A DNA stretch of 64,000 bases from a virus. The stretch covers positions 1 to 64,000 of the IMG/VR virus record IMGVR_UViG_3300002140_000159. One strand, written 5' to 3'. Positions 24,201 through 30,684 of this stretch are shown here, piece by piece. How positions within the stretch are numbered: position 1 is the first letter of the stretch; the number at the start of each line of letters is the position of its first letter. The position numbers and the translations under genes were made by a program. The notes beneath the pieces are model-generated. The model searched no databases, had not been told where the DNA came from, and saw only the letters and a list, made by a program, of their open reading frames with translations.

Positions 24201-25810
24201 ACAGTGGGTACACAAATACCAACACGTTCACTGGTGCACAAAACGCTGCAGCCAATGCGGACTTGATGGCTTCTCGCAAGCAAGCCATTGCTGACATGTT
24301 TACGCCAGGTCCACGCCGTGATCTGTCAAAAGTGAAGGCCAACCACATGGCACCTGTGCTTAATGAGCGGGGTGAGGTTGTGAAGTGGCGCTACATGATG
24401 GCAAACACCACCAAGGACAGCGTACTCAACCGGGACAACAGCTTTGACAAATTGCTGGGTGTTTTGGCTGGCGCTACTTATGACAAGGAAACTTCACGCG
24501 AGCAGAACAAAACAGCCTTCACTGCGCTCAAGGCACAGTATGACGCTGACTATGTCAAGAACCCAGAAGCGTATGTGCTGGTGGGTCAGGGTGCTCTCAC
24601 CAAAGAAATGAAAGAGATTTGGGATCTATTGCCTGCTGACAGCAAAGCTGATGCAAGAGCTATCTGGGGATACGACGGCATGATGGTCAAGAACGACGCT
24701 TTGGACATTATGTTTGGCTACCGCAAAGCGTCACTGGCTAATGCTTTTGCAAAAGATCCAGCGCTGCGCAGTGCACTTGAAAACATATTTGTTGATGTAA
24801 TGGAATGGTCACTGAGCCAACACGGTCGCGCGTTCCAAGGCATGGACCGAGACAAAGCACTGGCTTACGCAAAGATTGCCGCTATCAAGATCACGCGAGG
24901 AGAAAAAGTTTGGCAGGAACTGGTGGGTGAAGTCAAAGACATCTTGGTGGTCAAGACTGGCTTTGTGATGATGGGCAACATCTACTCCAACTTGTCATTG
25001 CTTTGGTTGAATGGTGTACCGATTAAGGATATTCTTAACCATCACTTGGTAGCTTTGAAAGGCGCTACAGCTTACAAACAGGACAGTGCTGAGCTGGCCC
25101 AACTTACGCTACTGCGCGACACTGGTTACATGCAAGGCAAAGATCTTGAAGTGAACCGGCGCATTGCTCGCTTGGAAGACAGCTTAGCAAACAATCCAGT
25201 CAAGGAACTTATTGATCTTGGCTTGATGCCAACCATCGTAGAAGACTTGGCCGCAGACGAAGATATTTACTCTTACAAGAGTGCTTTTGTCAGAATAGTG
25301 AGCAAGTTTACTGACAAGCTCAACCCAACCGTAGTCAAGGCAGCCAGAGTGGCGTACATGGCGCATGACACGCAGCTGTACCAAGGTCTGTCGCGTGTGA
25401 CGCAGTTGTCTGACTTTGTGGCTCGGTACACGCTTTACCAGCACAACATCAACAAGCGCAATCCCATGAGTAAGGAAGATGCTATTCAAGATGCCAGTGA
25501 TGCGTTCATCAACTACGACATTCCGATGCACCAGTCATTGCAGTACATGGATGACATGGGGCTGCTGCCGTTTACCAAGTACTTCCTGCGTATTCAGAAA
25601 GTCCTTGCTAAATTGTTTATGGACAATCCAGCACGGGTGTTGATGGCCATGTCTGTGGGACAGCTTATGGACTTGGGGCCCATCGTTCTGGAGAGTTCTA
25701 TGTTTGGTCGGATAGGCAACAATCCACTAGACGTTGGGCCTTTTAAGCTGCTTACGGTGCTAGATGACATTGCCACTATCAATGCTGCTTTGTCTATCGT
25801 GAAACAGTAA
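15218..25810 (+). CDS. N4-like virion-encapsidated single-subunit RNA polymerase (giant virion protein)
   Basis: 3,530 aa. Motif A is GEVDGVSNGS (D1535). Motif B is RDLLKGPINPLNYGG, matching R-x3-K-x7-YG (R1638, K1642, Y1650). Motif C is NNHDAVG (D1905). Upstream, FFLNQDMWKQQRSGY...NP resembles T7 FPYNMDWRGRVY...NP. Confidence 0.85.
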   Translation: MQDSFDDTMSRISPTPITPEVRLPTVGEVESKYRSLQQASRDKISRLEVRRLQQVAREKAVADSVVGQLGLDPNDTFGALANRGVATYTGVATGAGALASGAANEFARFNRGLADPLVQQAYQRQQWGIANADDLKLLNAPTADRTYLSDSDAAERFANKIDARRAEIATMVAPNKEGIQPTGLPQMAVDGGLSLLKGAIAVPEAAVGLASMVSGGAAGKYLEDAGFRPGEAKDFIESLKSAEMQAASQSVNGAEGFWNTVDQMAENPSTVPHLLLESLFPMLAGGVAARGLQALGAGVKLATAAGEGALMAGSAAEQIRGQTVDKRLSLKQSLAAATTGVMGGTVARLSGGVSGRLGLGDIDEAITKGTLGTSQRGVLTRTGGAAVFEGGEEALQSTGETVLQNFALDKALTEGVGNAAALGMVTGAAMGAPMGLAKGVGEAQQRYQDATKLQDEAIASGDVTALADPAARTYAPEKAIAALTGNAQLATTTEETKQAHLAKADEIVGVLDEKRAALAADLSNKTLKGVTAKIAEMQALLANTDPAKVDKVAGYTRYLDNLQKELPLLQEDKTDGKRTKSLEKELATLDTQIEGVNTAKTQLNQLVEGGTGVEAMLTSLSTPVDQADPVAVEASVATATRVVNLAMSAPQLLDPVRAEEVAADMTNALTAPQRLVLREFSKARLEQNLLISGSAVSRQIYEGGGGNTGIKNYQDRMAVAVRTGNQKQAEEQLDGLGKFEADHRSKAEVAAAAMAKGPGIQIIKANGQWQIGDGSLSQSKARPNGALTINSPKLVSDIQQEAAALTASLSYLTKAYELKFNAPSADASTLTGAENVTNQSQQGQGAQVQSKTPATKDAAPTGGTATSSEGVPATVGTTGGVQAAGVTESAVVEAKSTTVNEETSVSSVKTKSTGVDKKTEITQKTQEAKSTEITADTTVETQANSENSTVESDTAQTIASDGKLSALQQTSPEGTPHDEKKLGDFFTQESGKDSDGSKRPLVEVKNFMAAVAAGTVKIGQYIKDQDLGKDSKLVAWAKFVEKTAQWAPIIARNLKVGANAKFNYDDPIRYLIQAISVNGKSGIDVEDNVKTAMSAAVFGYVADLASRAAANSDKAINSTLGHRPDSPISADARAALTDVGAYQSQVIDSLGSAVIDALGFKIDVNAPQDMLAKLRVSLGAHAFKLMEDRGLLVRTSFTNGEINNLRNEDLFADNEAENSGEETTQISDKVVGHHFYKLARDEAGQPNGEAKEVADSIKGSQSLIQNLFGIESGLSFPSLTPIVGVQKQSNTGMGLPGFVKKVFKLNQTRPWKANKDPLKVLSLFSEEEGMEMSGVEAESEHTHVRNRNSKRAKNDGLAREFRNFMGFMGDLAMGEKGMDQEFFLNQDMWKQQRSGYKNNTVNPNTSKIVRWLIASDSWSTVIDLSNETQLQSFMLRASEGFGIKPEKDASQRSVDALDSMMQDPAMKAAVKALQVVLFTDNAVLSVEQQAAIKAAVKTGNQKLHTLASLIAYAKYQQAIDTKADTFTTNLMGEVDGVSNGSILNAIMYGAAATAEQLNLLLEKGGIYAFALGTQEPRFKGYNLWRGTPGHQDIYESNAQDLHSYVNSMPVESRAVTGAIWATAGSPINAALEATKDGRDLLKGPINPLNYGGGFTSIIGKMAYDYVDTMYEKLEGFSRKGSEQSTVDVFVGNVNVLLRSEGAAQLPVGRPISYYLSRSLSKSQEAALRNAYAATIGAATKEVIGTNFKPFLKRSKLVTQTVALSYGLYEAVYTASRNAMIEELGIPTTKAGPIHDLSKAQEAELAERLKDILPVMHTAMSKDEGNTSNGILLAKKGRKQNNSSAYKVQVSFGSKLKNNASQLTSVGRSVVQEDPGVIAISGTTHALDSAISLDAQNTNHVVNNHDAVGAGINTLAESADSLNKSTWSRTLNYSPLNEAHDALMRVVRGITEMDQRGELTPEMQASIKEMLQKLAKKNRVDKVETLLDTTVFKIFNEALEANKIKFGAMSQWAVVDQYAMDGGSHTVTEADRKEASDNLNALSPVRAAADLQALNDFALTMFGAGAVSTVPDAQPAVVPKEATLTSVFGPLGTPKIAPDADLVEFFEANPEASFKRVLQGLLRKVSTDGSIPNPKFNTMLIKSLVKLVDPELQVKYITKDSPGDLPINGPVMGARGWFAMNGTKQEIYVLSPEFVDSGLTTELLIHELVHAALSNIVQSTDKAVQPFIAELNELLKAAQTTVNGDAKLKAKFGDAVTSLDELLAWGMTNQAFQTEVLAKINMQSTTLGKMANLLQIFVANLANMLGFKDVASANGLGVLIANVSALFEQVAKTVPVERKQDPVNLVMATPAADPSLQAKLNTYSTLDLHDALKDGKLSVNFANQVRGLLSNIVEKLHGPFGSFSASLMEEQALSAEDVYLKAINTGEVPFASQILGSGFVVPDQSMFAIEQIEATVRATLESKEAYSTSAYRVLYALYTEIKNKIKVEDFHTGSPWSQATTAEQAAAQALHDFIFKLESNKGQRSDYLSRFAAMGLAHEGFNKLLQVATDRSRTVASTKSFADRLQAIFEGILAFWNTKVTHTYKGQQADQKLTMLVGQLVDIEAKRRYKFAHPRTSPVLDAIEDKSKAAADALRSKISKMAGAPAVSENKYAVVRAAGALVQTVADNRVDYFMDNLRTMRNSAFKGKLGVIASTLGELQGPAKALQALLRASKWMEGHRKDVITNTATFARAGFANQGKGMSTAAKAAVSQVFLRSGLHHLVGKFSMAEIAGLVSNTSELNKAVATYEAKLSSFGNATKYFIEQANALGIQIATGGVRGEFEMMNAHNIANLYGTAYQGKLTAARTAEAKEVIEVLVALYALGYTASAARLEASTLIAIENQRTDGNGVESVLKLHKQLEKESLERVFKGLPELMVHGYLPEIYDPNIEVKVANVADGKDLINLGYTKGEQVVLDRADPDRSMRHMYVRDGGGMGRRVSGITSTKSLNSKGTENHSGYTNTNTFTGAQNAAANADLMASRKQAIADMFTPGPRRDLSKVKANHMAPVLNERGEVVKWRYMMANTTKDSVLNRDNSFDKLLGVLAGATYDKETSREQNKTAFTALKAQYDADYVKNPEAYVLVGQGALTKEMKEIWDLLPADSKADARAIWGYDGMMVKNDALDIMFGYRKASLANAFAKDPALRSALENIFVDVMEWSLSQHGRAFQGMDRDKALAYAKIAAIKITRGEKVWQELVGEVKDILVVKTGFVMMGNIYSNLSLLWLNGVPIKDILNHHLVALKGATAYKQDSAELAQLTLLRDTGYMQGKDLEVNRRIARLEDSLANNPVKELIDLGLMPTIVEDLAADEDIYSYKSAFVRIVSKFTDKLNPTVVKAARVAYMAHDTQLYQGLSRVTQLSDFVARYTLYQHNINKRNPMSKEDAIQDASDAFINYDIPMHQSLQYMDDMGLLPFTKYFLRIQKVLAKLFMDNPARVLMAMSVGQLMDLGPIVLESSMFGRIGNNPLDVGPFKLLTVLDDIATINAALSIVKQ

Positions 25811-25863
25811 ATGCTGCTGGGCTACACAGTAAAACTGATTTAAGTCTTGCTGTGTAATTATCA

Positions 25864-26346
25864 TTACTTACTAAGCGACAGTCCGCTGGTTATCAAATAG
25901 TTAATGATTTCATTGAGAGACTTTCGGCCAAGATTAGGTATTTTAAGCAATCTCGCTTCTGTCCATGATAGGAGCGTGGCCAGGTCATTTATGTTTTCTG
26001 CTTGAAGGCAGAGTAGAGTCCGCCTATTCAACGGCAGATCTGCGACAAGAATATTGAGTTCAAGTGATGCCGTCTTGATTGGATAAGTCATCACTTGCCA
26101 ATACGCTCTCCATGCTACGTCACAACCGTTCTGGTGTCTGTTTATAAACTCAATAGACCACTGCTGGTCACGTCTCCATTCATTTAAAGAAAGTGGAATA
26201 GCGCGGTCAAGAAATCTTCCTTCTGGTTGTATTGCACTACCGTGCCTGATTTTGCTCGCTGCGCGTTTAAAAACAACAGGGTCAAATTTATCCCCCCGTA
26301 GAGCAGACATCATGGTTGCGTATTCGGTTGGGCCAAGGGGGCTCAT
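25864..26346 (-). CDS. RNA polymerase alpha-subunit C-terminal-domain (alpha-CTD)-like protein
   Basis: C-terminal LPLNRRTLLCLQAENINDLATLLSWTEARLLKIPNLGRKSLNEIINYLITSGLSL aligns by eye with E. coli RpoA [55 protein letters not shown]. Confidence 0.75.
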   Translation of the reverse strand: MSPLGPTEYATMMSALRGDKFDPVVFKRAASKIRHGSAIQPEGRFLDRAIPLSLNEWRRDQQWSIEFINRHQNGCDVAWRAYWQVMTYPIKTASLELNILVADLPLNRRTLLCLQAENINDLATLLSWTEARLLKIPNLGRKSLNEIINYLITSGLSLSK

Positions 26347-26702
26347 GTGTGTATCCTTGTTGTGAGGGTTTGTTGTCTATAACAATCAGTTTGCTACTAT
26401 AAGAGCTGCTGGGCAGCAGCTGGTAATAGGCTTGTGCGTGCTCCTTGCCCAAGGGATAGCAGCCTATTATCAAAAAAGTGCTGTCTCTCCAGCTGTCATA
26501 CGAGACATGTTGCACTGTCGCTCGCAGAGCCTTGGACCTTTGTGAGGCGTGGGGATGCTCATGCTGGCAGATCGTATATTGCCGCTGCTTGGTAGTCTGA
26601 TAAGTTGATGGATCTACAGGTAGCTCAAATCAGCTTTTTAGATCATAAGGAGGAGCAATGTCACTTGCTGCAAAGAGGATGCCCTTTGCTCTGTAGAACC
26701 AT

Positions 26703-26737
26703 CAGATAAGCGGACTAACATCTAGTCTGCTTATCTG
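26703..26737. repeat. 15-bp-arm inverted repeat (one G-T pair) with 5-nt spacer
   Basis: CAGATAAGCGGACTA-ACATC-TAGTCTGCTTATCTG, in a 430-bp noncoding region. Confidence 0.7.
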
Positions 26738-26776
26738 AGGGCCCCAGTCTTTCCTGGGTGTCAGACTTTTGGTAGC

Positions 26777-26980
26777 TTAGTCTTTGCTTTTGCTTTTAGA
26801 AAAGTCGCCTTCAAAGAACGCCCGTAGTCCTGATGCTGTAAACAAGACAATGGATGTAAGTGAAAACAAAAGCCCTATGGCCACACCAACTGCAAGGAAA
26901 AGGATGCCTCCGCTTGCAAGTACAGTCAGTATGGCAATTGCTGCTATCAAGTAGCCAATTCCTTTTAGTACGCTAACCAC
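26777..26980 (-). CDS. small membrane protein (2 TM)
   Basis: 67 aa with two hydrophobic helices. Confidence 0.55.
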   Translation of the reverse strand: MVSVLKGIGYLIAAIAILTVLASGGILFLAVGVAIGLLFSLTSIVLFTASGLRAFFEGDFSKSKSKD

Positions 26981-26989
26981 TGTAAAAAC

Positions 26990-27319
26990 TTAACTAAACA
27001 AGCTGCTAGTTTTTACGGGCTCTACTGACTTAGTCGCTTCTGCTTCAGTTGTGGGTTCTGTCTTACCCTGCTGCAAGGCAGGGGTCGATGAAACCATACT
27101 CAAGACAGCTGCTTTGGGAGCAGTTGCTTCGTCATCGTCAGCTCCTGCAAAGTCAGGTAATGCGTTTTCTTCGATGTCTATCTCTGCAGAGATGCCGCTT
27201 TCCTTGCGGCCAGCGGTGAAGGTGACAGTTACTTCCTTGCCCCACAAGTCGATGCCTTGCGAGGTGATGAACTGTTTAAGTGCAGCGATGATTTCGGTTT
27301 GCTTTAGTTGAATCTGCAT
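26990..27319 (-). CDS. hypothetical protein
   Basis: 109-aa ORF in the operon. Structured N-terminal half and an acidic, disordered C-terminal half. Confidence 0.55.
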   Translation of the reverse strand: MQIQLKQTEIIAALKQFITSQGIDLWGKEVTVTFTAGRKESGISAEIDIEENALPDFAGADDDEATAPKAAVLSMVSSTPALQQGKTEPTTEAEATKSVEPVKTSSLFS

Positions 27320-27913: not shown

Positions 27914-28196
27914 GCGCTTGTACGTCTGAAGGTGCTTCCATTTCAGCTACAAAAGGTAGCTTGCCCAACTCACCTAGAGCTACGTTCAAGCCAAAGATAA
28001 AGCCCTTGTGGTACTCGCCCACCAATGGTGTATCTTGGCCTTCCAGCTCAATCTCGACGCCGGTATCAGGAATTGTTAGCAGGTGCTGGAGCACCTTAAC
28101 GCGTTCCTGATGCCAGCCGGTGAGGTGGTGGACGAACTGATCCAGGTCTTCGATCTGGACGGTATCGGGTTTGTTGGTTTCTGCTGTTGCAGTCAT
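27894..28196 (-). CDS. hypothetical protein
   Basis: 100-aa ORF translationally coupled on both sides. Confidence 0.5.
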   Translation of the reverse strand: MTATAETNKPDTVQIEDLDQFVHHLTGWHQERVKVLQHLLTIPDTGVEIELEGQDTPLVGEYHKGFIFGLNVALGELGKLPFVAEMEAPSDVQAHGQTQS

Positions 28197-28702
28197 TCCA
28201 CGATCCTCCAGTCTTCGGCCAGTATGTCGCTCTGACTGGCAAGCCAGCCTGGCAGCATGGCGCGGCGACCTTCAGCGTTCACCGTCCACATGTCAATGTG
28301 GGGAAGGATCTCGCATTCGTCCTTGCCAGGCAACGCTTTAGCGTAGGCTGAGCCATCGCTCAAAGTTGCCGAAGGTGTGCCTGCAATGAGAATCAGCCAC
28401 ATGCCTTTGCCATTCCAGCCGGAACGGGCTACCTTTTGGCCCATCTTCAAAGCTTCGATTGCAAGCCCAAAAGTCATGTCTTCGATCGGGCGGTAAGCAC
28501 GATCAAATACCTCTTTTGGGCTCCAGCTGATGTAGCCTTTGTGGCCAGAGTGGTTGCCCACACCGCCGTCCAGGTACTCGACCAGGTAGCCTTCGTCACC
28601 TCCAAATTCATTGTCCGGCAGTTTCCAGCCGCGATAGCTGTTGTAAGCCTCGCGTGTCATGCCCAATGCGCTTATCAGTTTGGTGCCGATGAATTTTTTC
28701 AT
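28193..28702 (-). CDS. DUF2829 (Tad2-like) domain protein with N-terminal phage domain
   Basis: MTFGLAIEALKMGQKVARSGWNGKGMWLIL ... GWLASQSDILAEDWRIVE matches the DUF2829 signature as I remember it. Confidence 0.7.
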   Translation of the reverse strand: MKKFIGTKLISALGMTREAYNSYRGWKLPDNEFGGDEGYLVEYLDGGVGNHSGHKGYISWSPKEVFDRAYRPIEDMTFGLAIEALKMGQKVARSGWNGKGMWLILIAGTPSATLSDGSAYAKALPGKDECEILPHIDMWTVNAEGRRAMLPGWLASQSDILAEDWRIVE

Positions 28703-30282: not shown

Positions 30283-30684
30283 TTACTTGAAAATTGGATC
30301 GTTGCTGCTTGGGGTCTGCTCTTCTTGTCGAAGCTCAAGCTCCAAGGAGGCCAGGAGGTTCCAAGCCATCTGCGCTTTGTGGCGCCTACCTGTGCCTCCT
30401 GGCCCGTCGTCAAACACCTTGCCTTCGCCTAGATCTAGCATGTGTCTGGCAAACGCTTCCATGTACCTGTCTGCTCCATTGGGCACAGTTGCCCACCCGT
30501 TAGGGGTGTACTTCTTTGCACCAGCGGTGGTGACTTCGGACACTTCACGGAAAGCTCTGGAAAAGCCAGACAAACAAAGCCATGGCAATACCTTCCCGGA
30601 ATCAAGCTTGGCTCCGGGTTGGTTAGGACTGATGCCATGTGGATCGACTTCTTTTTGCTTGATAGCTAAAGGTGTGATTTTCAT
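30283..30684 (-). CDS. dATP/dGTP pyrophosphohydrolase-like (DUF5664-like) protein
   Basis: KLDSGKVLPWL...AGAKKYTPNGW...RYMEAFARH pattern, recognised from memory. Confidence 0.45.
   Translation of the reverse strand: MKITPLAIKQKEVDPHGISPNQPGAKLDSGKVLPWLCLSGFSRAFREVSEVTTAGAKKYTPNGWATVPNGADRYMEAFARHMLDLGEGKVFDDGPGGTGRRHKAQMAWNLLASLELELRQEEQTPSSNDPIFK

Follow-up and report, generated by a model that had tools for sequence, protein, structure and literature searches.

An RNA polymerase alpha-CTD detached from the polymerase and fused to an orphan helical domain in an accessory cassette of an N4-like phage

The alpha subunit's C-terminal domain (alpha-CTD) is the hub by which bacterial RNA polymerase recognises UP elements and takes input from activators. 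It is a known target of phages: Staphylococcus aureus phage G1 gp67 and the ADP-ribosylation of alpha R265 by T4 both disable the contact between the alpha-CTD and UP elements (PMC3694059). In phage N4, phage polymerases transcribe the early and middle genes, and transcription of the late genes falls to the host sigma-70 RNA polymerase (RNAP), which is activated via the N4 SSB (PMC4496689). In a full-text search of the literature we found no functional study of alpha-CTD proteins that stand alone. Here, we describe one such protein, of 160 residues (P0001), encoded by an uncultured N4-like phage and found in a window of 64,000 nucleotides (positions 1 to 64,000 of the IMG/VR record IMGVR_UViG_3300002140_000159). 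It consists of an orphan helical N-terminal domain (N-domain) and an alpha-CTD, with no alpha-NTD.

The closest described system is the alpha-CTD of Escherichia coli RpoA itself (residues 249-329; PF03118; structures 1COO, 1LB2, 3K4G and 3N97), which shares with P0001 the fold, the helix-hairpin-helix (HhH) motif PNLG(R/K)KS and the tethering by a flexible linker. The RpoA domain is part of a 36-kDa subunit, whereas P0001 is encoded by a phage on a mobile cassette and is basic, with a pI of 9.46 over its full length and of 8.25 in the CTD. The likeness to G1 gp67 and to the T4 system would be one of proposed function only, namely interference with UP elements: P0001 has no sequence or structural relation to them, and it would compete by mimicry, whereas these factors bind sigma or modify alpha. 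Like N4 SSB (gp45), P0001 is a product of the middle region of an N4-type genome that could act on transcription by the host RNAP (PMC4496689). The two proteins are unrelated, however, and N4 SSB is conserved, essential and contacts beta-prime, whereas the alpha-CTD gene is an accessory insertion. The features of the locus are collected in Table 1.

Table 1. Features of the alpha-CTD locus and its surroundings, in positions of the window.
Feature	Position	Strand	Basis
N4-type virion RNA polymerase (vRNAP) gene, 3,530 aa	15218..25810	+	ORF; stop 25808-25810
Accessory cassette, ~0.9 kb (terminator-like hairpin, gene, upstream region)	25811..26709		Absence from L010, low divergence, GC3
Hairpin between the convergent stops, 14-nt arms, 6-nt loop	25823..25856		Inverted repeat I3; inside the low-divergence block
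Gene of the alpha-CTD protein (P0001, 160 aa)	25864..26346	-	ORF list and translation; ATG at 26346, stop 25864-25866
RpoA alpha-CTD domain, residues 101-160	25867..26046	-	PF03118 match; Foldseek
Flexible linker, residues ~91-100 (about 10-12 residues)	26047..26076	-	Low pLDDT
N-terminal domain, residues 1-90, four helices	26077..26346	-	AF2 model and stand-alone homologues
Non-coding upstream part of the cassette; stem-loops 26405-26422 and 26421-26472	26347..26709	-	Spurious short ORFs only
Shine-Dalgarno-like AAGGA	26354..26358	-	Direct sequence reading; 7 nt before the ATG (occupying 8-12 nt upstream)
Hairpins that follow the replication operon's last conserved gene: 19-nt arms 26699-26741, CCCAG/CTGGG 26743-26758	26699..26758		Inverted repeat I2
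Gene of a 67-aa membrane protein; last conserved one in the replication/middle block	26777..26980	-	Homologue in L010 adjoins the vRNAP gene

An earlier note on this DNA, made from the sequence by eye, had pointed to an alpha-CTD-like domain in this reading frame. The frame lies where it was placed, on the minus strand, and the sequence details given there are all correct. Its start codon is backed by the N-terminal alignment with homologues (MSPLGPTEY / MTSLGTSEY).

The likeness of the C-terminal part to alpha-CTDs is far above chance. The Pfam model RNA_pol_A_CTD (PF03118) matches residues 96-151 (positions 25894-26061) with 50.7 bits, against a gathering threshold of 23.8 (E 1.4e-13), and a six-frame search of the genome gave PF03118 at the same place with 52.4 bits. 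A phmmer search against all PDB sequences returned exclusively RNA polymerase alpha subunits (E 1e-10 to 1e-8), the best being Francisella alpha-1 (E 1e-10), with the E. coli alpha-CTD fragments at ~2e-9. The HMMER alignment pairs residues 101-159 with E. coli 257-315 without gaps and reproduces the match of NRRTLLCL with VRSANCL that had been drawn by eye, with R109 at the place of E. coli R265 and PNLGRKSL opposite PNLGKKSL. By the Pfam and NCBIfam profiles, the sequence is RpoA-like specifically, not RuvA- or ComEA-like. The NCBIfam rpoA models TIGR02027 and NF003513 score it at 52.8 and 48.7 bits, far under their respective cut-offs of 302 and 227.8; the rpoA models of both collections cover only the last ~65 residues, and no alpha-NTD family of Pfam matches the protein. 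The N-terminal part is therefore unrelated to the alpha-NTD, as had been claimed.

The predicted structure is that of an alpha-CTD. The AlphaFold2 (AF2) model, built on an alignment that combined relatives of the N-domain with small alpha-CTD proteins, has a mean pLDDT of 92.6 and a pTM of 0.63, with pLDDT values of 93-98 in the alpha-CTD (residues 101-160), 59 over residues 91-100 of the linker and less than 50 for residues 91-94. Since the pTM is 0.63 despite the high mean pLDDT, the two domains are not fixed relative to each other. When the C-terminal domain was compared with the PDB using Foldseek, it superposed on solved alpha-CTDs (3GFK, 1Z3E, 1LB2, 3K4G, 3N97 and 9ZUM, of which 1LB2, 3N97 and 9ZUM are bound to DNA) with TM-scores by target of 0.8-0.92 and an rmsd of 0.8-1.3 A over 63-66 residues. 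Residues ~96-160 are a true RpoA alpha-CTD, i.e., a double helix-hairpin-helix, detached from the polymerase. The protein as a whole is not an RNA polymerase alpha subunit (RpoA), because it lacks the alpha-NTD dimerisation and assembly domain and scores below the full-length equivalog cut-offs.

The surfaces of the domain were mapped in E. coli numbering via the HMMER alignment, using the definitions of the 265, 261 and 287 determinants in PMC1874639, in which the 261 determinant is the contact with sigma region 4 and the 287 determinant the contact with CAP AR1. Most of the DNA-contact residues are kept: R265 (R109), C269 (C113), N294 (N138), G296 (G140), K298 (K142), S299 (S143) and E302 (E146). 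V264 is replaced by Arg, and N268, itself a DNA-contact residue, by Leu (L112), a change that may weaken or alter DNA binding. The two docking patches, which characterise the function of E. coli alpha and not membership of the Pfam domain, are altered (D258A and E261P in the 261 determinant; V287A and E288R in the 287 determinant), although T285, E286 and D259 are retained. The chain stops one residue past the equivalent of G315, and the tail beyond this point is missing. The same pattern emerges from 22 small single-alpha-CTD proteins, which are 50%-identity cluster representatives picked by likeness to the query and hence not an unbiased count: R265, N294, G296 and K298 are present in all of them, C269 in 21, S299 and E302 in 20 and N268 in 17, whereas positions 258, 261, 287 and 288 vary freely. 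We read this contrast between the surfaces as a sign of selection for contact with DNA, not for the docking of activators.

The earlier note had suggested that a free alpha-CTD could compete either for UP elements or for the activators that dock on the domain. Because the 261 and 287 determinants are substituted and variable and the DNA-contact residues nearly invariant, competition for activators appears less likely than competition for DNA. The same evidence bears on a wider version of the idea, in which the protein would be a decoy that soaks up alpha-CTD-docking factors rather than binding DNA; its targets could be activators, sigma region 4, the C-terminal domain of NusA, ADP-ribosyltransferases made by rival phages or a defence sensor of the host. 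In favour of a decoy, P0001 is a close copy of solved alpha-CTDs in its fold, its sequence is 48-52% identical over ~59 residues to the domains of E. coli and Francisella, and it retains T285, E286 and D259; moreover, other phages modify or block the alpha-CTD. Yet the 261 and 287 determinants have changed in P0001, along with the loss of the tail, and their positions are left free to vary in its small relatives. We regard the decoy as rather unlikely.

Alpha-CTDs are found in many proteins other than RpoA. HMMER, run exhaustively with P0001 against 1.84 billion representatives, gave 1,407 proteins at E <= 0.001. In a ranking by the alpha-CTD only, the top of the list was occupied by 21 proteins, 95-213 aa long, each with a single alpha-CTD at the C-terminus, differing N-termini and up to 62% identity to the query, all of them outscoring the RpoA-length proteins of the same list. 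The best match that is probably a fragment of RpoA, as judged by length and domain position (P0149), stands at ~54%. Where the contigs are long enough, the neighbourhoods of the small proteins are phage-like: one includes DnaB and primase genes, another ERF and a P22-family gene, and further ones an HNH-type endonuclease and runs of small overlapping genes. The small proteins (e.g., P0047, P0056, P0070, P0081 and P0114, of 95-215 aa) resemble P0001 in size, phage-like neighbourhood and conservation of the DNA contacts, but P0001 has a different N-terminal module. P0001 is a member of this class of small phage proteins with a single alpha-CTD (less than ~215 aa, an unrelated short N-terminal module and a phage context), and represents a new architectural variant in a recurrent class that forms many sequence clusters on phage-like DNA. 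The PHROG collection holds almost nothing comparable, with weak matches to a PmgS-like family only.

Many of the longer proteins contain 2-10 alpha-CTD repeats in tandem, often together with a sigma-70 region 4 domain. Six metagenome representatives (P0004, P0008, P0012, P0016, P0026 and P0031) are long proteins with 3-10 such repeats, to which several add a sigma-70 region 4 domain and one adds Sel1 repeats. Such proteins employ two promoter-reading modules away from RNA polymerase, in what is apparently an uncharacterised role. Two of the small proteins (P0047 and P0056) have weak matches to a segment of the BREX kinase PglW (~785-855 of the models), which suggests that an alpha-CTD-like HhH segment is present in PglW.

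In the AF2 model, the four helices of the N-terminal domain span residues 6-17, 23-37, 54-59 and 61-87, and the domain modelled alone has a pLDDT of 92 and a pTM of 0.81. About a dozen stand-alone proteins, 90-126 aa long, align with residues 1-88 (E 2e-25 to 3e-9, 30-62% identity; E 2e-34 in a profile search), with invariant P41, H71, Y82 and W83 and the motif EWRxDxxWS...HQxAC..AW..YW. The full-length alignment and these conserved residues and motifs make this part of P0001 a member of a rare family of ~90-aa proteins of temperate phages (among them P0002, P0003, P0005, P0007, P0009 and P0018), which share residues 1-88 of P0001 along their whole length. Unlike P0001, the members of this family end after the domain or carry other modules, and they belong to temperate, not N4-like, phages. 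Their contigs are phage-like: the gene lies among small genes just before a small terminase subunit in one case, beside a P22-family gene in another, and, in two temperate phages that are unrelated to each other, ~1 kb downstream of the integrase. A few members have other C-terminal extensions (P0035, P0082 and P0153), and a search for longer fused forms gave P0082 only. The fusion with an alpha-CTD was found, among the searched collections, solely in the query's own 90% cluster (2 sequences). A scan of IMG/VR with the N-domain profile gave one temperate-phage locus and a scan with the whole of P0001 no match; the species genomes of GTDB gave no match.

The family had no match in Pfam, PHROG, PADLOC or NCBIfam, and comparisons of structure were hardly more telling. 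The best Foldseek hit of the domain in the PDB had an E of 1.7, with nothing convincing; VIA-align against 48,161 chains reached a best Z of 4.8, under the stated noise level for helical domains; the ESM Atlas gave TM-scores of up to 0.57 to a cluster of hypothetical proteins, which is not informative; and the best E in BFVD was 0.76. A LuxR/NarL-type helix-turn-helix identity was considered and rejected, as the Z of 3.4-4.2 over ~50 residues is too weak. The prediction of a two-copy complex of the domain scored 0.38, against a mark of 0.42.

These data are relevant to the possibility that the N-domain is the effector of the protein (acting, e.g., in superinfection exclusion, anti-defence or the inhibition of a host protein), with the alpha-CTD serving solely to bring it to the nucleoid or to phage DNA. 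The autonomy of the domain in temperate phages, its accessory positions downstream of integrases or before the terminase, its fusion to different C-terminal modules and the presence of the P0001 gene on a mobile cassette are all in line with such a role. However, no family, fold or defence-related match was found for the domain and nothing points to a target; we hold this explanation to be unlikely.

Two observations were made along the way at the loci of N-domain homologues. The contig of the closest homologue (L005) was considered as a possible split-gene precursor of P0001, which was rejected because the gene downstream does not encode an alpha-CTD. On the same contig, a DUF551-like module (WQPI...W.PLP) is encoded at positions 80-283, just upstream of the N-domain homologue, and in P0082 a DUF551-like module is fused to the C-terminus of the N-domain, as judged by eye; Pfam gave no match to P0082.

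The explanation that we favour, with a probability of about 45%, is that P0001 is a free DNA-binding alpha-CTD that acts on A/T-rich, UP-like DNA, with the N-domain as its partner module. The protein would not be built into RNA polymerase, and its alpha-CTD would bind, on its own, minor-groove DNA of the A/T-rich UP-element kind. From there, it could keep the host alpha-CTD off UP-dependent promoters, which would amount to host shut-off, or the N-domain could bring a partner to A/T-rich DNA. It is also conceivable, but decidedly unlikely, that the N-domain docks on the host RNA polymerase or on sigma. P0001 would then provide an extra alpha-CTD in trans and retarget the host polymerase to phage promoters with A/T-rich upstream DNA, and the small phage alpha-CTD proteins more broadly would represent an unrecognised and widespread hijack of promoters by mimicry of an RNAP domain. 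If the favoured reading of P0001 as a free DNA-binding alpha-CTD is true, mimicry would be a third route to disable the host domain, beside the chemical route of T4 and the steric one of G1 gp67, and the orphan N-domain family would gain its first possible role, as the partner of a DNA-tethering module. The locus offers a clean test case, with a complete phage genome, a defined cassette, a natural relative that lacks the cassette, a strain with a deletion in the putative leader and confident models for both domains.

The position of the gene in the genome indicates how it relates to the phage's own programme. The virus record (71,726 bp) is complete, with direct terminal repeats, and is N4-like (Schitoviridae). 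On its plus strand are the genes of terminase, portal, major capsid and further N4-type virion proteins (N4-like PHROG matches), followed by the vRNAP. The minus strand encodes exonuclease, primase, Sak4-like, SSB, Gam-like and RuvC-like genes (PHROG), of which the RuvC-like, Gam-like, SSB, Sak4 and primase genes lie upstream of the 67-aa gene; the SSB is ~52% identical to those of enterobacterial N4-like phages, and its gene is 2.4 kb from the alpha-CTD gene. The alpha-CTD gene is the last of the minus strand and, as the earlier note had it, convergent with the vRNAP gene, the two stops being separated by 53 bp that include a hairpin.

The closest relative in IMG/VR (L010/G001) is a complete genome of 69,382 bp with direct terminal repeats, in which the C-terminus of the vRNAP is 76% identical. 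There, a 63-aa gene, homologous to the 67-aa gene of the window, follows the vRNAP stop after 90 bp, and PF03118 was not found anywhere in the genome. A tblastn search of 50,697 phage records gave no alpha-CTD protein in N4-like phages, which leaves P0001 as the only case found in such a phage, and near and distant searches of the same records with the DNA of the cassette gave no match. Salmonella phage FSL SP-058 has unrelated small hypothetical genes in the same position. The alpha-CTD gene is outside the conserved middle/replication set of N4-like phages (Schitoviridae), given its absence from L010 and from the N4-like phages of the searched records. This also weakens the earlier suggestion that the protein is linked to the switch between phage and host polymerases.

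A variant of the strain from aquatic libraries (L018-L020) does carry the gene, and its protein (P0154) is identical at 159/160 positions, the one codon changed in the dN/dS comparison being that of I136T. Between the window and L018, the interval 25811-26709 differs by 2 substitutions (0.26%), a 127-nt deletion (26475-26601) and a 2-nt indel, whereas the flanks (the vRNAP gene and the 67-aa gene) diverge by ~5-6% on average. The low-divergence block starts at the stop codon of the vRNAP gene and ends within the hairpin at 26699-26741, and is essentially the block that is missing from L010. The GC3 of the alpha-CTD gene is 0.41-0.44, compared with 0.50-0.68 in core genes. The absence from L010, the low divergence, the low GC3 and the variable slot together indicate that the gene and its ~360-bp upstream region are a recently gained or exchanged unit. 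The moron-like cassette occupies a variable slot where two transcription units converge, and is dispensable for an N4-type cycle.

This organisation also bears on whether P0001 could be a generic HhH DNA-binding helper of the adjoining recombination and replication genes (RuvC-like, Gam-like, Sak4 and SSB), unrelated to transcription. The gene does close the replication/recombination block, other small alpha-CTD proteins are encoded beside DnaB/primase or ERF genes, and the alpha-CTD repeats of many non-RpoA proteins are apparent DNA-binding arrays. Nevertheless, the cassette is an insertion cut off from the operon by terminator-like hairpins, L010 has the same recombination genes and lacks it, and the likeness is specifically to RpoA. 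We consider a helper role improbable.

Upstream of the gene, the earlier note had described a structured leader of 430 bp. The ORF-free gap (26347-26776) is real, and its sense strand of 441 nt is more stably folded than shuffled sequences (z -3.47), but the 141 nt next to the start codon do not differ from shuffles in this way (z -0.21). An inverted-repeat search placed larger hairpins near 26590-26741, and the CCCAG/CTGGG hairpin is kept in L010, as seen in the alignment. The 127-nt deletion is a polymorphism of non-coding DNA in an otherwise near-identical cassette, found in contigs of three libraries and in L018; part of the upstream region is thus dispensable. A scan of 25700-27100 for sigma-70 consensus promoters gave none (shuffled sequences give 1.8), and Rfam gave only chance-level matches in the same interval. 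The cassette is present in four aquatic metatranscriptome libraries, in contigs of up to 36 kb that run across the convergent genes; DNA carry-over is possible in these contigs, and they give neither ends nor strand.

P0001 might then be a recently captured fragment that is carried along unexpressed or without a role. The empty promoter scan and the absence of the cassette from the closest relative would fit such a passenger, and the divergence between strains (one substitution) is too small for a test of selection. But the frame is intact and preceded by a ribosome-binding site, both domains are modelled with pLDDT >90, the functional residues are conserved and two strains with 5-6% divergence elsewhere both retain the cassette. 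A non-functional passenger is, on these grounds, highly improbable.

The surroundings of the cassette show some further features. A 15-nt direct repeat (TAAATGCTGCTGGGC at 25808-25822 and TAAGAGCTGCTGGGC at 26400-26414, 592 bp apart) brackets the ORF. We rejected it as a target-site duplication because the right edge of the block is at ~26709-26740, not at 26400; the second copy, which is half of the hairpin AGCTGCTGGGCAGCAGCT, lies off this edge. Further along the minus strand, another accessory gene, of DUF2829 type (28193-28702; 169 aa; PHROG 872), is missing from L010, which has the Gam-like and SSB genes directly side by side; in its place, the strain variant carries 84 different letters (contig joint 28118->28717). 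On the same strand, a protein of 133 aa (30283-30684) matches both PHROG 5033 ('endolysin; inhibits RNA polymerase', E 1e-33) and PHROG 801 (dATP/dGTP pyrophosphohydrolase), two annotations that conflict. Within the vRNAP gene (24700-24900, plus strand), the two strains diverge by 20-36% at the nucleotide level, compared with ~5% around, with no change in length, and other 100-nt bins of this region are identical. The C-terminal region of the vRNAP is thus a mosaic, with a hypervariable patch beside identical stretches.
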